The position numbers and the translations under genes are program-made. Under the pieces are notes generated by a model, which did not search any database, had not been told where the DNA came from, and was given only the letters and a program-made list of their open reading frames with translations. Positions 1,976 through 53,600 of a DNA stretch of 64,000 bases are shown here, piece by piece (the stretch's first letter is position 1; every line of letters starts with the position of its first letter). The DNA comes from Cetorhinus maximus (Eukaryota): the NCBI RefSeq assembly GCF_964194155.1, contig NC_135907.1, positions 9,734,001 to 9,798,000 of the forward strand, read 5' to 3'.

Positions 1976-2189
1976 ACAAATGTTTTATTACTGTTTTATG
2001 CTTCAGGTAAATATTTATATCCACGGTGTTTTCTGGCTCACACACTTGTGGTAGGGGAATTCTAACTTCATTCGATAATCCAGATAATTCTGACATCCAG
2101 AAATGACTTGGTCACAAGCATTCTGGACTGGAGAGTTTAACATGTATACTTTATGTAAATAATAAGATCCTGCACATAAATAGCCCCAT

Positions 2190-2550
2190 TGATGTAGTGA
2201 AACATTAAGGCAGGTGACCAAAAGCTTGGTCAAAGAGATAGGTTTCGAGGAACATCTTAAAGGAAGATAGAGAGGCAGCGAGGTTTAGGAAGGGAATTCA
2301 AGAGTTTAGGGTAGCTGAAGACACGGCCACCAATGGTGGAGTGAGTTATAAGTCAGGGATGCTTAAGAGACCAGAATTAGAGGAGTGCAGAGATCTTGGA
2401 GGGTTTTTAGGGCTGAAAGGAGATTACAGAGATAGGCAGGGATGAAGCCATGGAAGGATTATAATTATGGATGAGAATTTTAAAATCAAAGTGTTGCTTA
2501 ACTGAAAAACAATGTAGCACAGGGGGTGATGGGTGAATGGGATTTAGAGC
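2190..2550 (-). mobile_element. L2-type LINE 3' fragment
   Basis: ggtgaccaaaagcttggtcaaagagataggtt...gaattttaaaatc shared with 50930-51310 and complementary to 9060-9420. Confidence 0.65.
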
Positions 2551-2561
2551 AAGTACCTTAC

Positions 2562-2608
2562 CTTTGTTTTTAATCATTGCCGCCAGCAACTTATCCTCCT
2601 CTTCCTCT
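2562..2608 (-). CDS. MICALL1: MICALL1 exon 15, 47 bp, phase 2 to 1
   Basis: cttacag|AGAGGAAGAG...AACAAAG|gtaagg; [16 protein letters not shown]. Confidence 0.9.
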
Positions 2609-5600
2609 CTGTAAGACAGTAATGTGAGAATTAATCTCCCATTCTCTCTCTCATGTACTTGCCTTTGGGCATAATCAAGAAATACTCCACTATCCTGCGG
2701 CCATTGCTCAGGGATGGAAAACTTGTACCCCAATATGCTGTGCCAGTTACCCCTATAGGAACCTGGTACTCCAATATCTTGTGCCCATAAGGATATAAGA
2801 CGTAGGAGCAGAAGTAGGCCATTCAGCCCATCAAGTCTGCTCCGCCACTCAATAAGATTTTATAATCCTCAACTCCACTTTCCTGCCTTTTCCCCCATAA
2901 CCCTTGATTCCCTTACTGATTAAAAATCTATCTCGGCCTTGAATATACTTAACGACCCAGCCTCTACAGCCCTCCGTGGTAAAGAATTCCACAGATTCAC
3001 TAGCCTCTGAGAGAAGAAATTCCTCCTCATCTCTGTCTTAGATGGGCGATCCCTTACTCTGAACTTATGCTCTCTGGTCCTAGACTCTCCCACAAGGGGA
3101 AACAACCTCTCAGCATCTACCCTGTCAAACCCGCTAAAAATCTTATATGTTTCAATAAGGTCGCCGCTCATTCTTCTAAACTCCAATGAGTACAGGCCCA
3201 ACCTACTCAACCTCCCCTCGTAAGGAAATCCCTCCATACCCGGGATCAACCTAGTGAACCTTCTCTGGACTGCCTCCAATGCCAGTATATCTTTTCCTTA
3301 GATAAGGGGACCAAAACTGTTCACAGTATTCTAGGTGTGATCTAACTAGTGCCTTGTATAGTTTTAGCAAGAATTCTCTATTTTTATACTCCATTCCCTT
3401 TGAAATAAAGGTCAACATTTAATTTGCCTTCCCGATTACCTGTTGAACTTGTATGCTAGCTTTTTGGGATTAATGCATGAGGACCCCCAAATCCCTCTGT
3501 GCTGAGCTTTCTACAGTCTTTCTCCATTTAAATAATATTCAGCTCCTCTATTCTTCCTGCCAAAGTGAATAACCTCACATTTTCCCACATTATATTCCAT
3601 CTGCCAAGTTTTTGCCCACTCACTTAACCTGTCTATATCCCTCTGTAGACTCTTTATGTCATCCTCATCACTTACTTCCCACCTACTTTTATGTCATCCA
3701 CAAACTTGGCAATAGTATATTCACTTCCCTCATCCAAGTCATTAATATATAGTATAAATAACTGTGGCCCCAGCACATCCCTGTGGCACTCCACTCGTTA
3801 CAGGTTGCCAACCTGAAAATGACCCCCTTATTGCAACTCTCTGTCTTTTATTACTTAGCCAGTCCTCTATCCATGCTAATATGCTACCCCCAACACCATG
3901 GGCTCTTATTTTATTAAGTATCCTTATGTGCGGTACCTTATTGATCGCCTTTTGGAAATCCAAATATATTACATCTACTGGTTCCCCTTTATCCATCCTG
4001 CTTGTTACCTTCTCAAAGAATTCTAATAAATTTGTCAGGCATGGTTTCCCCTTCATGAAACCATGCTGACTTTGCTTGATTATATTATGTATTTCTAAAT
4101 GCTCTGTTATTACATCCTTTATAATAGACTTTAACATTTTCCCGATAACAGATGTTAAACTAACTGGCCTATAGTTACCTGTTTTTGTCTTCCCTTTTTG
4201 AATAAGGGCGTTATATTGGCAGTTTTCCAATCCTCTGGTGTTTTTCCAGAATCTAAGGATTCTTGGAAGATTACTACCAATGCATCCACTATCTCTGTAG
4301 CTACTTCCTTTAATATCCTAGGATGCAACCCATCAGGTCCAGGGGATTTATCAGCCTTTAGCCCATCAGTTTCCCTAGTACTTTTTTTCTAGTGATAGTT
4401 ATTGTATTTATTTCTTCCCCCCACCTTTTGCCCCTTGATTATTTAGTATTTTTGGAATGCTATTAGTGACTTCTACCGTGAAGACTGATGCAAAGTATTT
4501 ATTTAACTCCTATGCCATTTCCTGGTTCCCCACTGTTATTTCCCCAGCCTCATTCTCTAAGGAGATTATGTTCACTTTGGCCTCTCTCTTCCTTTTTATA
4601 TATTTAAAGAAGCTCTTACTATCCGTTTTTACATTACTTGCTAGTTTACCCTCAAAGTTGATTTTCTCCCCCTTTATTATTTTTCTGGTCATCTTATGTT
4701 GGTTTTTAGAACTTTCCCAATCCTCAGGCTTACCACTAATCTTTGCTACATTGTATGTTTTTTCTTTCAATTTGAAACTATCCTTAACTTCCTTGGTTAG
4801 CTATGGTTGGTTTATTCCCTTCCTTGGATCCTTCTTCCTCACTGGGATATATCTTTGTTGTGAGTCATGAACTATTTTCTTAAACGGCTGCTATTGTTCA
4901 TCAACCTTTTCTGCTAAACTCCTTTTCCAGTCCACTCCACCCTCAACTCTGCCCTCATTCCTTTGTAATTACCCTTATTTAAGTTTAGCACAGTTGTTTC
5001 TGACCCAAGTTTCTCACTCTCAAACTGAATGCTAAATTCTACCATGTTATGGTCACTGTTTCTTAGGGGATCTTTTACTCTAAGATCATTTATTAAACCT
5101 GCCTCATTACACATTACCAGATCCAAAATAGCCTGCTCCCAGGTTGGATTCACAGCATATTGTTCTAGGAAACTGTCCCGAATACACTCTATGAATTCAG
5201 TGCTCATAGTGCCTACCTCTGCCAATTTGATTTTTCCAGTCTACATGAAGATTAAAGTCACCCATGATTAATGTACTGCCTTTTTTACATGCCCTCATTA
5301 TCTCCTGATTTATTCTCTGTCCTACAGTATAGCTACTGTTAGGGGGCCTATAGACTACTCCCACCAGTGCCTTCTTCCCCTTGTTATTTCTTCACCCATA
5401 TAGATTCCACATCTTCCGATCCAAGATCATTTCTTGCTGTTATATTTATTCCATCTCGTACTAACAAAACTACCCCACCGCCCTTTCCTTCCTGCCTGCC
5501 CTTTTGAAAAGTCACATACCCCTGAATATTTAATTCCCAGCTATGATCTCCTTGTAACCATGTCTCCGTAATAGCTGTAAGATCATACCCATTAACCTCT

Positions 5601-29600: not shown

Positions 29601-32600
29601 AGCATTTGAGGGTCAAGGGATTAGAAAGTTACAATGGTAGATTTAGATGAGAAAAGATGGGAGGAGGCAAGGGTAGAGTAGAAACACCGGCATGGACTGA
29701 CTGGGCTGAATGGCCTGCTCTTGTATATTCTGGGTCAAACTCCCTTCTAACAGCACTGTGGGTATACCTAGACCACATGGACTACGGCAGTTCAAGGTGA
29801 TGGCTCACCATCATCTTCTCAAGGGAACTTAGGGATGGGTAATAAATGCTGGACTAGCCAGTGACGCTCATATCCTGTGAAAGAGTAAGTTTAAAAAAAT
29901 ATATGTAATCCTATGTCTGTATGCTCTAGATGGCCAGAGGTACAGAGAGAATTCAGGTTTTTAAAAGGGAGAGAAACACTTACTTGAGAAGGAGGGATGT
30001 AAGGGGATGTGGAGAGTGTGCAAGCAGTTAGGAGCAAGAGATAGAACAAAATGGAGACGCAGGTTAGATGGGCCGAATGTTCCTCCATGCTGCTGGGTTA
30101 AAGGATGAAGGGAAAGCAAGTGTTCATGCTCCTGATCACTATCCAGTGATGACCACTGTAAAGGGTATTGTGGACACCAGGGGCAGAATTTTCTGCCTGC
30201 TGGGCGGGCCCGACCCAATCTCCGGTGGGCGGGGAGCCGATCCCCGCCGGAGAAGCGGGCCCCGCCGCCATTTTATGTGGGCGGGCAGGTCCTTTAATTG
30301 TTTCAATGATCCTGCCAATGGTCTCAATTGGCCATTGACAGGTCTGCGGGTGCACAGCTGATTTTGCTGCGCCCCCACCTTCCTGAAAATTTAAATGGGA
30401 CGGGATGACGTCGGGGGTTCCCCTGCGTTATTTCACGTGTCGGCGAGCGGGCCCCGCCCCCTGCTCGCCGACGGCAAAATTTAGCCCCAGGAGAGGACAG
30501 GATCAGGTTGAGCTGTCATCCTTTGCCTCAATTCAATAGCCCGTCAAAACGCACAGTTTTGGCTCTCCCTTGATGAGATGCTGGAACAGCAGCAGAAAAC
30601 TGAGGCAAGCACTGTTAATGTTTTGTCAAATTACATCATTAAGATTTGTTAATTACATTGTTATGGTCAAGAGAAACAGGTGATGGGTATTAATTGTCTT
30701 CGAGCACATATAAATAGGGGATGTGATGAGGTGGCTGAGGGGTTAAGGTGATGGACTGCTAATCCATTGTGCTTTGTACGCGTGGGTCCAAATATCATCC
30801 TCGTCATTGTGTCTCTGTATGTGTCCATCCCTGTTAAATGCTTGGGGTCAATTGAAAATTCTGGAACTGATAGCTTTTTTTATCTCAAATAGTCTATAAA
30901 TAGGGGATTAGGGAAGATGGTGACGTATTAGCAATGTTACTGTACTAATAATCCAGAAACCCAGGTTAATTCTCTGCGGAGATGGATTCAAATCTAACCA
31001 CTGCAGCTGATGGAATTTGAATTCAATTAATAAATTTGGAATATAGAAGCTTGTCTCAGTAATGGTGACCATGAAGCTAAGATTTTATGGTGGCTGAAAT
31101 AGCTGAGTTGGGAGAGTGTTAGCCTGAAGATCTGAAGGTCCCTGGTTCAATCCTGGGATTCAGCAACCCTTAGGTGGCCATCAACAAGCCCAGCAAGGGG
31201 GTGGTGTGACCTGACTGTCTGCCCCTCTACCGCGGCTATATTCGAGGCTGGGTGGCCCTAGAGAGGGAGCACCTCTCCACTGACATGTTTGAGGCCTTCC
31301 GTGACCGGTGGGCTCCACGGGGTTGGGGTGCATCATCACCCTAGGATGATATTTTGATTTGATTTTGTAAGCTTCCTTTGAAGTTTTGATTTTTTGTTAC
31401 AGTGCCCCACCAGGGGCTGTCATCCCCAACAATTAGTTTTATTGGCCATTTGTTTTATTTAAAAGAGGCTATAAATAGGGGATTAGAGAAGACGGTGGCA
31501 TAGTGGTAATGCTACTGGGCCAGTAATCCAGAGACTAGGCTAATGCTCTGGGGGCAGTGGTTTGAACCCCACCATGGCTGCTGGTGGGATTTAAATTCAT
31601 GGCCAATTAGTTCAGATGGTTAGAGCATCATGCTAATGATACCATAGGTCGCAAGTTCAATTCCTGTATTGGCCAACGAGGATTCCCTATCCTAAAGTAA
31701 ATATGTCACTTTTTCCTTTAACGTTGTTTGTTCTAGTTACAGTACCCTACCAGGGGTTGTCATCCTATCTATTAGTTAATTTGTTTCGACCATTTGTTTT
31801 CTTAAAAGAGTCTATAAATAGGGGGTTTGATTGTCAGACCCAGAAATACCATTTTAATTCGATTTTTTAGGTTTCCTTTGATATTTTGTTCTAGTTACAT
31901 CAGAGGCTGTTTACCCCCCTCCCACTTTAATTAGTTTATTTTATTGATTTTGGTTTTATTTAAAAGAGGCTATAAATAGCACTGAATTGGGTGGGAGGAG
32001 AGCTGTGAGACTGAACAAGTCAATAAGCTCGCTCAATATAAAAAAAAGCTCTGTGCCTTGGTTTTGGCTTCATCAACTGGCTTGGGTCCTATTAACAAGC
32101 ACCGTATCCCAAAAAGATCCATTTAGGGAAACCGCAATGATTGGAGCGGAGACTAATTGGGAGAGAAACCTGAGCAGATTCCGAGAGGCTGAAGGTAGCC
32201 TGAGCAAGCAGCAGACACCTGGATTTTCTGATGCACAAAGCTTCAATCAAGCGAGTGCAAGCATCAAGCCATCAAAGGGATCTCTGTGACTAAAGTGAAG
32301 CACCAAGCAGTCACCCACCAGAAAAAAATCACAGCTTATGCAGTGCCATATTAATTGCCAACAGCACCCTGCTCCCTGCACATGGCCCTGCTCCCTGCAC
32401 ATGGCCCTGCTCCCTGCAGCTACCAAGTCTAGTCCAGTAGAGAATTGCAAGTTGCTTTCTAACAAGGATGGTATCAATCGAGTGAAAGGCCCTGGCCAAC
32501 CTACCTGCACAAAGACACTCACCTTTCCGCAAGGGACTGCAGACAGTCACGTGGCTTCGGTACAGGTGTAGTTTGCTCAGTCGTTCCTCCTAAATAAGTG

Positions 32601-44600: not shown

Positions 44601-47600
44601 ATAATTTTAAAGATCTTAATAAGGTTACCTGGTCTAAAGAAAAAAAGCACTTAATTGTTCAAGATAAAAGCAAAGAACTGCGGATACTGGAAATCCAAAA
44701 CAAAAACAAAAACAAAACTACCTGGAAAAACTCAGCAGGTCTGGCAGCATCAGTGGAGAAGAGCACAGCTGACATTTCGAGTCCTCATGACCCTTCAAAA
44801 GAACTAAGTAAAAATAGAAAAGGGGTGAAATATAAGCTGGTTTAAGCGGGGGGTGGGGGGGGGGGGGAGAGACGGCAAGTAGAGCTGGATAGAGCGCCAG
44901 TGATAGGTGGAGATAACCAAAATATGTCACAGACAAAAGGACAAAGAGGTATTGAAGGTGGTGATATTATCTAAAGGAATGTGCTAGTTAAGGGTAGAAA
45001 GCAGGACAAGCAAGATACAGATAGCCCTAGTGGGGGTGGGGTGGGGTGAAGGAATCTAAAAAGACTAAAAGGTAGAGATAAAACAATGGATGGAAATACA
45101 TTTAAAAATAATGGAAATAGGTGGGAAAAGAAAAATCTATATAAATTATTGGAAAAAACAAAAAGGAGGGGGGAAAAACGGAGAGGGGGTGGGGATGGAG
45201 GAGAGAGTTCATGACCTAAAATTGTTGAACTCAATATTCAGTCCGGAAGGCTGTAAAGTGCCTAGTCGGAAGATGAGGTGCTGTTCCTCCAGTTTGCGTT
45301 GAGCTTCACTGGAACAATGCAGCAAGCCAAGGACGGACATGTGGGCATGAGAGCAGGGTGGAGTGTTGAAATGGCAAGCGACAGGGAGGTCTGGGTAATG
45401 CTTGCAGACAGACCGAAGGTGTTCTGCAAAGCGGTCACCCAGTCTGCGTTTGGTCTCTCCAATGTAGAGGAAACCGCATTGGGAGCAACGAATGCAGTAG
45501 ACTAAGTTGAGGGAAGTGCAAGTGAACTGCTGCTTCACTTGAAAAGAGTGTTTGGACCCTTGGTCGGTGAGGAGAGGGGAAGTGAAGGGGCAGGTGTTGC
45601 ATCTTCTGCGGTTGCATGGGAAGGTGCAGTGGGAGGGGGTTGAGGAGTAGGGGGTGATGGAGGAGTGGACCAGGGTGTCACGGAGAGAACGATCCCCACG
45701 GAATGCCGCCAGGGGGGGTGAAGGGAAGATGTGTTTGGTGGTGGCATCATGCTGGAGTTGGCGGAAATGGCGGAGGATGATCCTTTGAATGCGGAGGCTG
45801 GTGGGGTGATAAGTGAGGACAAGGGGGACCCTATCATGTTTCTGGAGGGTGAGGGCGCGCACCTCCCACGCATCCGCCCTCACACCTTCTCCTCCCTCCC
45901 AGAAACATGATTGCTGCATTGTTCCAGTGAAGCTCAACGCAAACTGGAGGAACAGCACCTCATCTTCCGACTAGGCACTTTACAGCCTTCCGGACTGAAT
46001 ATTGAGTTCAACAATTTTAGATTATGAACTCTCTCCTCCATCCCCACCCCCTTTCCGTTTTTTCCCCCTCCTTTCTGTTTTTTCCAATAACTTATATAGA
46101 TTTTTCTTTTCCCACCTATTTCCATTATTTTTAAATGTATTTCCATCCATTGTTTTATCTCTACCTTTTAGCCTTTTTAGATTCCTTCACCCCACCCCAC
46201 CCCCACTAGGGCTATCTGTCACTTGCTTGTCCTGCTTCCTACCCTTAACTAGCACATTCCTTTAGATAGTATCACCACCTTCAACACCTCTTTGTCCTTT
46301 TGTCTGTGACATATTTTGGTTATCTCCACCTATCACTGACCCTCTATCCAGCTCTACTTGTCCCCCCCAAACCTTAAACCAGCTTATATTTCACCCCTTT
46401 TCTATTTTTACTTAGTTCTGTTGAAGGGTCATGAGGACTTGAAACGTCAACTGTGCTCCTCTCCACCGATGCTGCCAGACCTGCTGAGTTTTTCCAGATA
46501 TTTTTGTTTTTGACTTAATTGTTCAATCTTTCCCAAAAGCTGTAATCTCTCCATTTGGTACCATCTTTAAAATTTTTTTTGCACTTCCTCCGGTACTTCT
46601 CCGTCTTTTTATAGTATGGAGTCCAGAACTGTGCATAGTTCTCTGTGATCTGACTATGATCATGTAACAAGTTTAACATAACTTCAATACTTTTGAATTC
46701 TCTACCCCTAGAAACAGAACACCAGTTTGTTAGCATTTTAATTACTTTGCGGACATGGGAGGCTGCTTTTAATGATTTGTTCACCTGTATCCCTAAATCC
46801 CTTTACCTTTGCAACCCATTCAGTTTATTTTCCACCCCATTCAATTTATTTTCTAAGATGTAGGTGACATTTTTATTTTTCCTACCAAAGCGCATCACCT
46901 CACATTTATCTGTGTTAAAGTTCACTTCACACTTAAGTGCCCAGTCTGCAAGTTTTCTAATGTTTTCTTGTATCATGCTGCATTTCTCTCCCACCCCCAC
47001 AGTTTGGTATCATCTGCAAATTTTGATCTCGAGTTACTTGTTGCTCAGTCAAATATAATGTAAATTATGAATATCATGAGAGCATTGATCCTTGCAGAAC
47101 ACTGCTTTCTACCTTCCTCCAATGTGAATAAACACTCATTACCCTAAGTCTCTGTTTTCTATCCTTTTTAGCCAATTTGCTATCCATTCAGCTATTTGTC
47201 CCATGATTCCACATGCCCAAAATTTTGTCATGAGCCCACTGATGTGGTACCTTATTGAAGGAAATTCAAGTATATGACATCCATTACAATACCCTTGTCT
47301 ATTCTTTCCGTTACCTCTCGAAAGCAACATATTAAGTTAGTTGAGTATGACTCAGCCTTTAGGAATCCGAGGAGCTGACTATTTTCTGTTATATTTCCTG
47401 CCTTTAGTCTAGATGCTCTTCTATCACTTCTTTTAGTTTGGATTCTAGTATATTTCCTACCTGACGCTAAGCTGACTGGTCTACAATTCCCAGATTTTGC
47501 TTCACAAGAAGTATAGACTGGCCATTGGAAGCTTTACCTTTTGAGATTAGCAAGTGAGAAATATTGGTTGAGAGGTCCAAACTGTAACTGTATGGTGCGA

Positions 47601-50600: not shown

Positions 50601-53600
50601 TTCTCTTAGTCTTCTTTGCTCCTAGGAGAACAACCCCAACATCTCCAGTCTATCCTCGGAACTGTAATCCCTCATCCCTGAGATCATTCTAGTAAATCTC
50701 TTCTGCACCCTCTTCAAAAACCTTCACTGAAATAAATTTTGAACATGCAGAGTAATATTTGAACTCAATAAAATATTGAAAAAATTGATTGCATCTTTCA
50801 CAGTAACAAATTTTAATTTACCATTAAATTGTCTTTTGTGCCTTTTAATACCTTAATTGGAGTTTCTAAAATCAAGGTCTCAGTCTAGCTCAAAAGATAG
50901 GTTTCAGCTGATGTTTTTTTCTCACTTCAACAATGTGTATTTATATAGCGTTGTAATGTAGTAAAATGTCCCAAAGTGTTATATAGGTGCATTATAAAAC
51001 AAAATTTGATGCAGAACCACATAAGGAAGTATTTGGACTGGTGACCAAAGGCTTGGTCAAAGAGATAAGTTTTAAGGGAAATCTTCAGAGGTAAAGGAGT
51101 AGAGAGGATTTTTGGAGGGAATTCCAGAGTTTAGGGCCCCCATGGCAGCTGAAGCAAAGCTGTTCATGGTGGAGTGATGAAAACTCGGGACACACAAGAT
51201 GTCAGAGAATTGGAGGAGTGCAGAGTTCTCCAGGATTACGGCGATTGGGAGGGGTGAAGCCTTGGAAGGGTTTGTAAACAAGAATTTTAAAATCAAGATA
51301 TGACTAGACTGGGAGGCAATTTAGGTCAGTGAGCACAAGGGGGATAGACGAATAAACTTGGCGCGAGTTTGGATACGGTTAGAATTTTCCATAATCTGAA
51401 GTTTACTGAGGGTGCAAGGTGGGAGACTGGCTGGGAGAGGATTGGAATAATCAAATCTAGAGGTACAACGTTATATATAATGGCTTTTTGCAGATGAGAC
51501 GAGGCAAAGGGGGTGACAAACGATGTTATGGAGATTGAAGTAGGCAGTCTTGATGATGGACAGCATATGGGGTCAGAAGCTCAGCACAGGTCAAGTAGGA
51601 CATCAATGTTGTGAACAGTCTGGTCCAGCCTCAAACAGTGGTCAGGGAAAGTAATGAAGCCAGTGGCTAGTGAACAGAGCTTGTGGAAGGGACTGAGGAG
51701 AATGGCTTTGGTTTTCCCAATATTAATCGGAGAAAATTTCTGCTCATCTAGTAGTGGATGTCAGTCAAGAGGTCTGACAAATCAGAGACAGTGAAGGAGT
51801 TGAGAGAGATAATGGCAAGGTAAAGCTGGGTATTGTCAGCGCACATGTGAAATCTGACCTTGAGTTTTCAGATGATGTCGTTGAGGTGTGGCATGTAGAT
51901 GAGAAATAGGGGTGTGATTTGTCAGACCTCTTGACTGACATCCACTACTAGATGAGCAGAAATTTTCTCCGATTAATATTGGGAAAATCAAAGCCATCCT
52001 TGGCGTACTCCAGGCAAAACGGTGCAGGAAGAGAAGTTATCGTAAGTGATTCAAATTTTTTTTAAAGGGACCATAGAAAGACAGTTCAGCAAATTTGATG
52101 GAGACTGAGCAAAGGATAAGGGGAGGGAAGGGACAATACAAGTATTTTGGCATCGACTGAACAGATACAAATGTAACCAGACAAGGGGAGTCCAACCTAC
52201 CTGGACCAAGGATGAGAGTTATTAGAGGAAGATGTTGTGGTGAACCGTATCCAAGCCTACAGACAGGCAAAGAACGTTGAGGTGGGATAGCTTACCACAG
52301 TCATACAGGGCATGAATTGGGATGTTAATTAAGAGCTGTTTCAATACTGTGGCAGGGGTGGAAACCTGATTGGAGGGATTCACACTTGGAGTTGCGGGAA
52401 AGCTGGGCACAGATTTGGGAAACGACAATTTCAAGGACTTGAGAGGAAAGAGGTTGGAAATAGGGTGGTAGTTTGCAAGAGGTGGTGATGATGACAGACC
52501 TGAAAGGGGGGTGGTGGTGAAGAGAAAACAGTACCCAAGGAGAGAGGGCCATTAACAATTTGAGCTAACATGCGAGCCACAAAGGCAAGTTGGACGGTCA
52601 GCAGTTAATCCAGTCAGATATGCATACCGATCATGCAGAGTTTATAGAATTTCCAGCATGCAATCTATATAAATTTTGAAGATCGGAAGCACGGGTCTTC
52701 TTATCCTCTCGTGCGTTGAAAGTTAATTTAGAACGTTAGAAAGCCGAGTGGTTACTGTCCAGGCTCACACAACATATTATAAATAGTCAAGGGTAAGAAG
52801 GTCATCTGTCCATCAGCATACCTCTAATTTTTTTTTTAAAGAGTGCACAGGCAGTTTAAGCATGTGGTTCCTTGAATTTTTCTTGTGCGGCTGTACACGC
52901 GTGGTAGCTTAAAAGAGCAGACTTGTGAGAGATCTACATGGGAACTTTCAGGTGACCACACAGGATATTACTGTCCAAAGAAGCACGCCTCACATCAGCA
53001 GATTGATTCACGTGGTGCTTATGTTTAGTAAGCTGTATTCAATGACATAACTGACGATAGAATCCCTTCTAAGAACTTGCACATTAGCTACCTGGGTGAA
53101 AGTGCCAGCAGGCAGGCAGCACCTGCGGAACTGGCAGGACTCAGTGTCTTTGAGGAGGAAATTAGGAAACATCGAGAGTGAATATTAATGACTTGTAGAA
53201 TCATGAAGTGCACGAGAAATGTGAAAAACCATTTATAAATGAATGTACAGGGTGCTTCCATTTCTCAAAAACTGTTTTGATCTCGCCAAAGAAATTGGTA
53301 GAGAGATTAATAACCATGAAACTGAGACCAAAATTAATGCTGAGTAACAGGCAACTTTTGAGAGTCTACAAATATCGCTTCCTCCTTCTGTCAGCTGAAT
53401 GCGGGGGAGCTCCTTGGTTGCTGCTACTTTGAGATTGTTAGCCCACTGGATCAAGCTGACATATGTTCATTCCCCCACCCTTTCGTGTCTCTGGTGGCAT
53501 TACACCTGTAAAAGGAATCAGTAGTGGCCTGGAAAACTTTATTGGGCAAGCTTGATGACAGAAAAAACTGCGACCAACATTGGCAGACAAAACCTGAGGC

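Follow-up and report, generated by a model that had tools for sequence, protein, structure and literature searches.

Tandem insertions of Tx1-clade LINEs, some headed by tRNA and SINE sequences, at the putative TATA box of a Copia-type LTR in Cetorhinus maximus

We analyzed a stretch of 64,000 nucleotides from Cetorhinus maximus (assembly GCF_964194155.1, contig NC_135907.1, positions 9,734,001 to 9,798,000 of the forward strand), which is referred to as the window. It contains four modules arranged in tandem on one strand and separated by copies of the motif TATAAATAG. Judged from their sequence, the inserts are 5'-truncated long interspersed elements (LINEs) of the Tx1 clade that entered, repeatedly, the putative TATA box of a Copia-type, GalEa-like long terminal repeat (LTR). 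Three of the four modules carry tRNA copies, which the reverse transcriptase probably acquired by switching templates; two of them also carry part of a short interspersed element (SINE). A first-pass annotation of the window had described the block 30709..31979 as such an array and ascribed it to a site-specific Tx1-clade machinery that hit one site again and again and regenerated its target. This proposal is supported by empty and filled sites throughout the genome, by a duplication of about 14 bp and by the counts of tails followed by the motif. The array itself was confirmed, but the feature reaches further and amounts to a solo LTR at 30613-32097. The annotation had missed that the target is the putative TATA box of a Copia-type LTR with hundreds of copies in the genome.

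Results

The target site

The sequence upstream of the first motif of the window has 430 exact copies in the genome, whereas a control has 0. The first 100 of these junctions comprise 69 empty sites that run straight into the 3' half of the LTR, 27 filled sites and 4 unclear ones, which look like empty sites of a diverged LTR subfamily. A genome-wide pattern of the Tx1-type tail followed by the motif, a check suggested in the first-pass annotation, gave 49 matches, compared with 2 for its control. Outside the window, 27 of 46 matches lead into the LTR 3' half, 16 into a further Tx1 module and 3 into other sequence. The view that the motif is simply the fixed 3' end of the LINE at unrelated flanks is excluded by the 27 matches that enter one conserved LTR and by the 69 empty junctions.

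The same target was recovered independently of the motif. When the best 30 of 396 candidate loci for an internal ORF2 query were examined, 28 had a 3' end, which by eye was followed by a TATA-type motif in 26 (24 of 26 after three segmental copies were merged). A script placed 20 of the same 28 ends at a TATA-type motif against a background of 2%, its windows being partly misplaced. Related LTR subfamilies with TATAAAGAG, TATAAAAAG or TATAAGGAG serve as targets too.

Comparison of the first with the last motif in 45 complete arrays revealed an identity that begins at TATA in 32 of them and extends up to 14-16 nt. Each insertion duplicates about 14 bp from the TATA; therefore the target regenerates and arrays build up. 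The G run reported at the start of every module is indeed present, but the same comparison assigns it to the duplicated target (30709-30722) and not to the module. Module lengths of 17-2633 nt reflect a variable 5' truncation and a fixed 3' end. At the left junction of two arrays (L229 and L194) the left motif copy is absent, which represents target truncation rather than duplication. The empty site that had been predicted from the window was wrong, as it lacked 13 bases that empty copies carry after the motif. Sequencing runs of three other organisms held 7-17% of the sampled words and gave no evidence on the window locus.

Identity of the inserts

The relationship of the tails to Tx1, proposed in the first-pass annotation, is upheld by profile matches and by long copies of the element. 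A 263-aa piece of reverse transcriptase (RT) shares 52% identity with ORF2 of Xenopus Tx1L over 94% (E 9e-72); L1 and R2 structures matched at E 1e-7 to 1e-8 only, and a stingray sequence was among the closest RT matches. Three long copies (L281, L280 and L283) align with Tx1L ORF2 residues 3-1291 in order, with broken frames, from the APE endonuclease through the RT and the C-terminal region into the 3' untranslated region (UTR). The stretch 31172-31483 of the window resembles the 3' end of L280 (Table 1). Pfam gave no match for 7 of 8 pieces when endonuclease, ORF1 and C-terminal fragments of Tx1 were searched.

The host LTR

The motif lies at the position expected for the TATA box of an LTR, and AATAAA is found further downstream in most copies; a promoter function is presumed from this arrangement. 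The empty element is about 220-250 bp long, has TGTTAA...TTAACA ends and is bordered by a 5-bp duplication. Flanks match at 4-5 of 5 bases in 14 of the 36 loci with both ends readable, as compared with 0.9 expected from shuffled pairs. The LTR end followed by TGG has 80 matches in the genome. Among 15 loci preselected for TTGG after the LTR end, 14 possess a tRNA-Met-type primer-binding site directly after the 5' LTR (three degenerate) together with a common internal region, which is about 4.4 kb long in L246. The internal region encodes an RVT_2 domain (E 1.5e-20), with a weak rve integrase match (E 0.085) upstream of the RT region. Paired LTRs were present in all 4 elements tested, two of which have flanks agreeing at 4 of 5 bases. 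Since the 5' and 3' LTRs of single elements are merely 58-85% identical, the system is old.

Metazoan GalEa elements, as described in PMC5445492, have TGT...CA LTRs, a 5-bp duplication, a tRNA-Met primer site, the motifs C2C4H4C, KARLVA, YVDD and TRPD(I), and a length below 5 kb. The host element is alike in its LTR ends, target duplication, primer site and length. Among 15 decayed copies, a C2C4H4C knuckle at the gag position was recognized in 7, KARLVA in 4 and T/SRPD in 4, whereas HVDD, in place of the YVDD of GalEa, stands in the 2 copies where this motif is readable. The host may thus be called GalEa-like by its features.

Anatomy of the window array

The motif occurs at 30709, 30895, 31470, 31813 and 31971, as had been reported. 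Its 6 matches in the 64-kb window compare with 0.47 expected, and the sixth, at 52778, has neither a Tx1 tail nor an LTR around it. ARAGORN and Rfam agree on the three tRNA copies named in the first-pass annotation, all on the plus strand, and they are the sole tRNAs in the 64 kb. Identity to intact genes of the genome is 72/82 for tRNA-Ser, 66/73 for tRNA-Phe and 58/74 for tRNA-Ile, which marks them as decayed copies. The ends of the modules before the motif also read as previously described. The proposed composition of the modules holds for modules 2-4, in which Tx1 profile matches were found (31172-31462, 31712-31810 and 31830-31966), but not for the "short tail" of module 1, which has none. 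Most of this tail (30807-30877) is non-Tx1 sequence that is joined elsewhere, at L076, to the last tRNA-Ser bases (95% over 82 nt), without Tx1 and without an LTR.

The heads of modules 1-3 are tRNA and SINE sequences of Pol III type with an internal promoter, now decayed. None of the tRNA copies bears CCA, and where their trailers begin, as well as in their short leaders, they agree with intact genes or other retrocopies: the trailer of the module 3 tRNA-Ile opens as in intact genes, and a leader like that of the module 2 tRNA-Phe is also found at L100 and L105. With gene-flank ends and no CCA, the window tRNAs look like copies of precursor transcripts.

Precursor-tRNA retrocopies seem to be common in this genome. 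Copies of tRNA-Phe (L100:1490-1640) and tRNA-Ile (L088:1440-1620) with leader, trailer and direct repeats of 10-13 bp lie inside other repeats, and a decayed tRNA-Phe copy has been amplified within a larger near-identical repeat (L105-L108 and about 20 further matches on C29 and small contigs). The captured precursors may stem from G000:C32, C36, C16 and C29, where genes for tRNA-Ser, -Phe and -Ile form large tandem clusters.

Elsewhere in the window, Pfam searches found an RVT_1 RT fragment (E 1.3e-18) and a weak GIY-YIG match (E 6e-4, Penelope-like) at 3745-4317 and 45212-45970, both on the minus strand, and nothing in 23 of the 26 long frames tested.

Table 1. Features of the window array and of the LTR that holds it
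Feature	Position	Strand	Evidence
Left 5-bp target-site duplication (AGCAC) of the host solo LTR	30608..30612	+	Sequence
Host solo LTR, 5' part, starting TGTTAA, Copia/GalEa-like	30613..30708	+	Profile 30645-30708, E 2.6e-17
Target copy 1: putative LTR TATA box and GGGGAT, about 14-bp duplication attributed to Tx1	30709..30722	+	Motif, duplication comparison
Module 1 head: 2-nt leader and decayed tRNA-Ser(GCT) (30725-30806), no CCA	30723..30806	+	ARAGORN, Rfam
Module 1: tRNA-Ser 3' flank up to and including a T run, probably the precursor trailer	30807..30877	+	95% match at L076
Module 1: about 20 nt resembling Tx1 3' terminus	30875..30894	+	By eye; no profile match
Target copy 2	30895..30908	+	Motif match
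Module 2: 5' part of abundant tRNA-derived SINE, ending in T4 run	30909..31086	+	40 matches among loci examined
Module 2: 6-nt leader, decayed tRNA-Phe(GAA) (31093-31165), short trailer, no CCA	31087..31171	+	ARAGORN, Rfam
Module 2: Tx1 ORF2 C-terminal end and 3' UTR	31172..31469	+	73% over 331 nt to L280 3' end, E 2.7e-46
Target copy 3	31470..31483	+	Motif match
Module 3: 5' part of the SINE family of module 2, start identical in position	31484..31599	+	83/122 identical to module 2 head
Module 3: decayed tRNA-Ile(AAT) (31601-31675) and about 36-nt trailer, no CCA	31600..31711	+	ARAGORN, Rfam
Module 3: Tx1 3' UTR	31712..31812	+	Profile E 2.5e-10
Target copy 4	31813..31826	+	Motif match
Module 4: Tx1 3' end alone	31827..31970	+	Profile E 1.1e-15
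Target copy 5; not followed by the 13 bases seen there in empty LTRs	31971..31979	+	Comparison with empty LTRs
Host solo LTR, 3' part, ending TTAACA	31980..32097	+	Profile E 4.7e-33
Right 5-bp target-site duplication (AGCAC)	32098..32102	+	Sequence

Small-RNA and other heads

It had been suggested that different Pol III transcripts are fused to the Tx1 tail. Other Pol III heads do occur at the same target, but they form a minority and most modules consist of Tx1 only. A script scored 76 arrays as filled, 72 of them chosen without regard to heads; by eye, 10 of these 72 hold non-Tx1 heads, of tRNA, 5S, SINE and histone types, and 2 hold a tool-supported tRNA head. A tRNA-Ile head was identified at L229 (Rfam), and a tRNA head without a tail at L048 (relaxed ARAGORN), which we take to be tRNA-Glu-like. 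In a related LTR subfamily, L287 (G000:C5, 3900-6950, minus strand) carries two full-length 5S rRNA heads (Rfam, run on the same locus as L266). Between one of them and a 1.4-kb Tx1 piece lie about 250 nt of non-Tx1 sequence, and the other is joined at its T run to a short tail. In these 5S modules, as in modules 2 and 3 of the window, the small RNA is placed 5' of a truncated LINE end, both reading in one direction and enclosed by a single target duplication.

SINE heads are present at L177, L200 and L182, a mixed head at L021, a tRNA-like head at L196 and a head of no recognized type at L285. At L194 (G000:C21, about 2174-2600, minus strand) a histone H2B-like coding sequence, identified by eye from its translation, sits at the LTR target, with two Tx1 modules downstream. 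Further loci were retrieved with targeted patterns, namely L066 (two tRNA-Asp-like heads), L311 (SINE and tRNA-Asp, no tail), L310, L065, L068 and L074; for one such pattern, 6 of 14 matches were at LTR sites and 8 were unrelated. At L310:1500-1640 the 5' half of a tRNA-like sequence, which by eye breaks off near the anticodon loop, is fused to a Tx1 tail after a target copy. With default settings, ARAGORN reported a single tRNA across 30 tail loci, lying about 900 bp from the motif, and none at 30 junction loci. Because it misses decayed heads in this mode, a relaxed run was used, in which SINEs and Tx1 also give rise to false calls. The Glu- and Asp-like heads escaped Rfam.

Shared 5' starts within arrays

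The 5' starts of modules were compared in 62 parsed arrays with 117 modules, a match being defined as at least 21 of the first 30 bases after the duplication. Starts were shared by 16 of 55 adjacent and 15 of 56 non-adjacent pairs, as compared with 93 of 6573 between arrays. A shared-start pair was found in 13 of the 27 multi-module arrays (permutation mean 2.0, maximum 6; 0 of 5000 reached it). The closest tail was that of the partner in just 4 of the 31 shared-start pairs, and in the L015 pair the heads are 0.92 and the tails 0.52 alike. Shared starts far in excess of chance, combined with mostly differing tails, suggest that a new insertion copies the 5' end of its neighbor, with DNA duplication for a minority of pairs. 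When 14 adjacent pairs other than those of the window and L287 were ranked by likeness, the neighbor came in the top quarter for nt 44-74 in 9 and for nt 74-104 in 3; the first 30 bases, having been selected, were not counted.

The tail end type G[TC][CT] was found in 21 of 27 first modules and in 3 of 27 last modules. A tree of the tails, proposed in the first-pass annotation, did not group the three window tails (3 changes; 0% of bootstrap trees with one). This tree is weak and poorly resolved, its row WIN_2 includes non-Tx1 bases, and 6 headed rows and modules below 150 nt were left out. At L177 (G000:C7), modules 1 and 3 are two copies of one SINE-headed module with tails 93% alike and a Tx1 module between them; they share a unique middle and a very short Tx1-like end. 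This repeated module is a candidate for a local master or a duplication.

Discussion

We consider it highly probable that the arrays grew through repeated rounds of target-primed reverse transcription. The endonuclease would nick the LTR at its TATA box, and reverse transcription would start at the 3' end of the Tx1 RNA, with duplication of about 14 bp of the target. After a short or long stretch of Tx1, the RT may switch to a nuclear Pol III transcript at its 3' end; two successive jumps, from Tx1 to a pre-tRNA and from there to a SINE, would sometimes occur. The new 5' end would often be completed on the resident neighbor, whose first 30-70 bases it would pair with or copy, and the next Tx1 copy would enter the most upstream target copy. 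As the latter retains the LTR sequence 5' of it, module 4 would be the oldest and module 1 the newest. We infer the nicking, the jumping and the order partly by analogy with R1 arrays and U6/L1 chimeras.

Several observations weigh against this mechanism or against parts of it. The translated comparison of the window tail with Tx1 ORF2, which the first-pass annotation had recommended, was not significant by itself: tblastn of 31150-31400 against Tx1L ORF2 and five relatives found nothing, so the link to Tx1 goes through DNA likeness to the long copies. Module 1, in which the profile detects no Tx1 tail, could be a tailless pre-tRNA mobilized in trans. DNA searches found no intact tRNA gene with the exact Ser or Ile trailer. 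At L098 (G000:C15, 1260-1760), tRNA-Phe and a Tx1-type tail are preceded by the 5' part of a SINE and, before that, by another decayed tRNA-like sequence; this SINE-tRNA-Phe-Tx1 chimera lies outside any recognizable LTR. An age test by tail identity between first and last modules was null (13 vs 11), and therefore the direction of growth rests on the analogy with R1. The SINE heads of modules 2 and 3 are only 68% alike, less than either is to other copies (75-81%), so copying from the neighbor is no more than a possibility in the window. All copies are old, which blurs the detail of the junctions. Furthermore, at a rate of 2 in 72, three different tRNAs in four modules are not explained by the mechanism alone; under independence we estimate about 1e-4 per four-module array at a 3% rate. 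The three-tRNA array may be an outlier that a large scan happened to select, or it may reflect a real local bias. The target could act as a self-renewing landing pad with memory, in which every Tx1 insertion completes its 5' end on the resident module, truncation points and heads are inherited along the array and a locus with a Pol III head in place preferentially captures further nuclear Pol III precursors; we hold this extension to be doubtful.

The joining step could also have taken place before reverse transcription, if U-rich or cleaved 3' ends of Pol III RNAs were ligated to broken Tx1 RNA and inserted as one template. RNA ligation has been proposed for U6/L1. Junctions at T runs in the 5S heads, the Ser trailer and the module 2 SINE are consistent with ligation, as is the tRNA-like 5' half joined to a Tx1 tail at L310. 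However, three-part chimeras require two ligations and the shared 5' starts are left unaccounted for, so that we think this route rather unlikely; it is inseparable from template jumping by sequence and would affect the joining alone, not the targeting. The first-pass annotation had raised the formation of nascent SINEs, that is, headed modules copied from transcribed masters with a Pol III head and a Tx1 tail and mobilized by Tx1. A SINE cut at nearly the same place and followed by tRNA-Phe and a Tx1 tail is seen twice, in the window and at L098, L177 holds its two copies of one SINE-headed module, and the tRNA-Asp trailers of L066 and L311 have similar ends. Nevertheless, no amplified tRNA-Tx1 SINE family was found by the module searches or the junction pattern. 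Only 2 of 12 matches to the SINE-to-tRNA-Phe junction were real (the window and L098; 10 were unrelated), and these two have different Tx1 junctions and different types of tail. Among the best 35-40 matches to each of modules 1, 2 and 3 there was no second copy spanning a tRNA-Tx1 junction, L098 excepted; as the searches give best matches or exact patterns, these are lower bounds and rare diverged copies may escape. Most Tx1 copies are headless, which by the criterion of Kojima (2015; PMC4494074) points to one-off switches. We therefore regard nascent SINE families as improbable.

If a single insertion had been followed mainly by tandem duplication of DNA, or by unequal exchange between target copies, shared 5' starts within arrays would be expected, and in the 4 pairs whose tails are also closest to each other such a process may have operated. 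The other 27 pairs have closer tails in other arrays, some differ in tail type (L015), and tail types are ordered along arrays. In the window, the modules carry three different tRNAs and ungrouped tails. Pure DNA duplication was thus rejected as very unlikely for the window, although it may explain a minority of pairs elsewhere. A decayed tRNA gene cluster, or a segmental copy of one, in which the motif is a fixed LINE 3' end, would agree with tRNAs that have gene-type flanks and no CCA. This reading was rejected as next to impossible: the block lies inside one LTR with a matched 5-bp duplication, empty sites abound among the junctions, true clusters (C32, C36 and others) have different spacers, and searches with the modules each gave a single full-length match, the window itself, and no segmental copy of the block.

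The targeting of LTR elements, tandem arrays and small-RNA heads already have published precedents. In its main-text description, Kojima (2015) reports crocodilian Tx1 families that prefer LTR retrotransposons, tandem insertions around a target duplication and Tx1 elements headed by U1 or U2 (PMC4494074). Tx1-8_Crp and Tx1-4_AMi, of the Tx1-Mar group, favor LTR retrotransposons as the shark inserts do, and the U1 head of Tx1-4_AMi, the tandem SINEU-3 insertions split by a target duplication and the repeated 5' additions by template switching resemble the shark arrays. In contrast to that description, the shark target is one position, the putative TATA box of a Copia/GalEa-like LTR, and the heads are one-off tRNA, 5S and SINE sequences rather than U1 or U2. 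The first-pass annotation had cited crocodilian SINEU as a Tx1-tailed precedent; the same text instead gives poly(A) tails and no LINE with the SINEU-1 3' end. Xenopus Tx1L, of the same clade by the RT identity given above, inserts site-specifically into another transposable element, Tx1D, which unlike the LTR here is a non-autonomous piggyBac DNA transposon (PMC4494074, same text).

Drosophila R1, which belongs to another clade and targets 28S rDNA, likewise regenerates its target by a 14-bp duplication. New R1 copies enter the duplication at the 5' end of the resident, and microhomology occurs at truncated 5' junctions; neighbors that share truncation points while differing in their tails are not reported in the passages considered here (PMC2718515, PMC5932611). 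U6/L1 chimeras, as outlined in PMC4476161, also have small nuclear RNAs fused by template switching 5' of truncated LINE ends, and the same source describes tailless pre-tRNA retropseudogenes as retrocopies made by LINE machinery. They differ from the shark arrays, in which one target regenerates, three-part SINE-tRNA-LINE chimeras occur and Tx1 is involved. A literature search, whose coverage excluded Repbase, Dfam and most subscription papers, found nothing on Tx1 at a Copia LTR TATA box, on such shark arrays or on truncation points copied from a neighbor. What is new here is the sharing of 5' starts within arrays beyond chance with mostly differing tails.

The system offers a precisely mapped case of a LINE that parasitizes an LTR retrotransposon at its putative promoter, and a single genome provides hundreds of such sites, empty and filled. 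The shared 5' truncation points bear on the open question of how the 5' junction and the second strand of non-LTR insertions are formed. The headed modules may represent the step before the birth of a SINE, at which a Pol III head meets a LINE tail, for tRNA, 5S and SINE transcripts. If the target does keep a memory of earlier insertions, the arrays would be ordered records of pre-tRNA, 5S and SINE transcripts of the germline and a nursery for composite SINEs.

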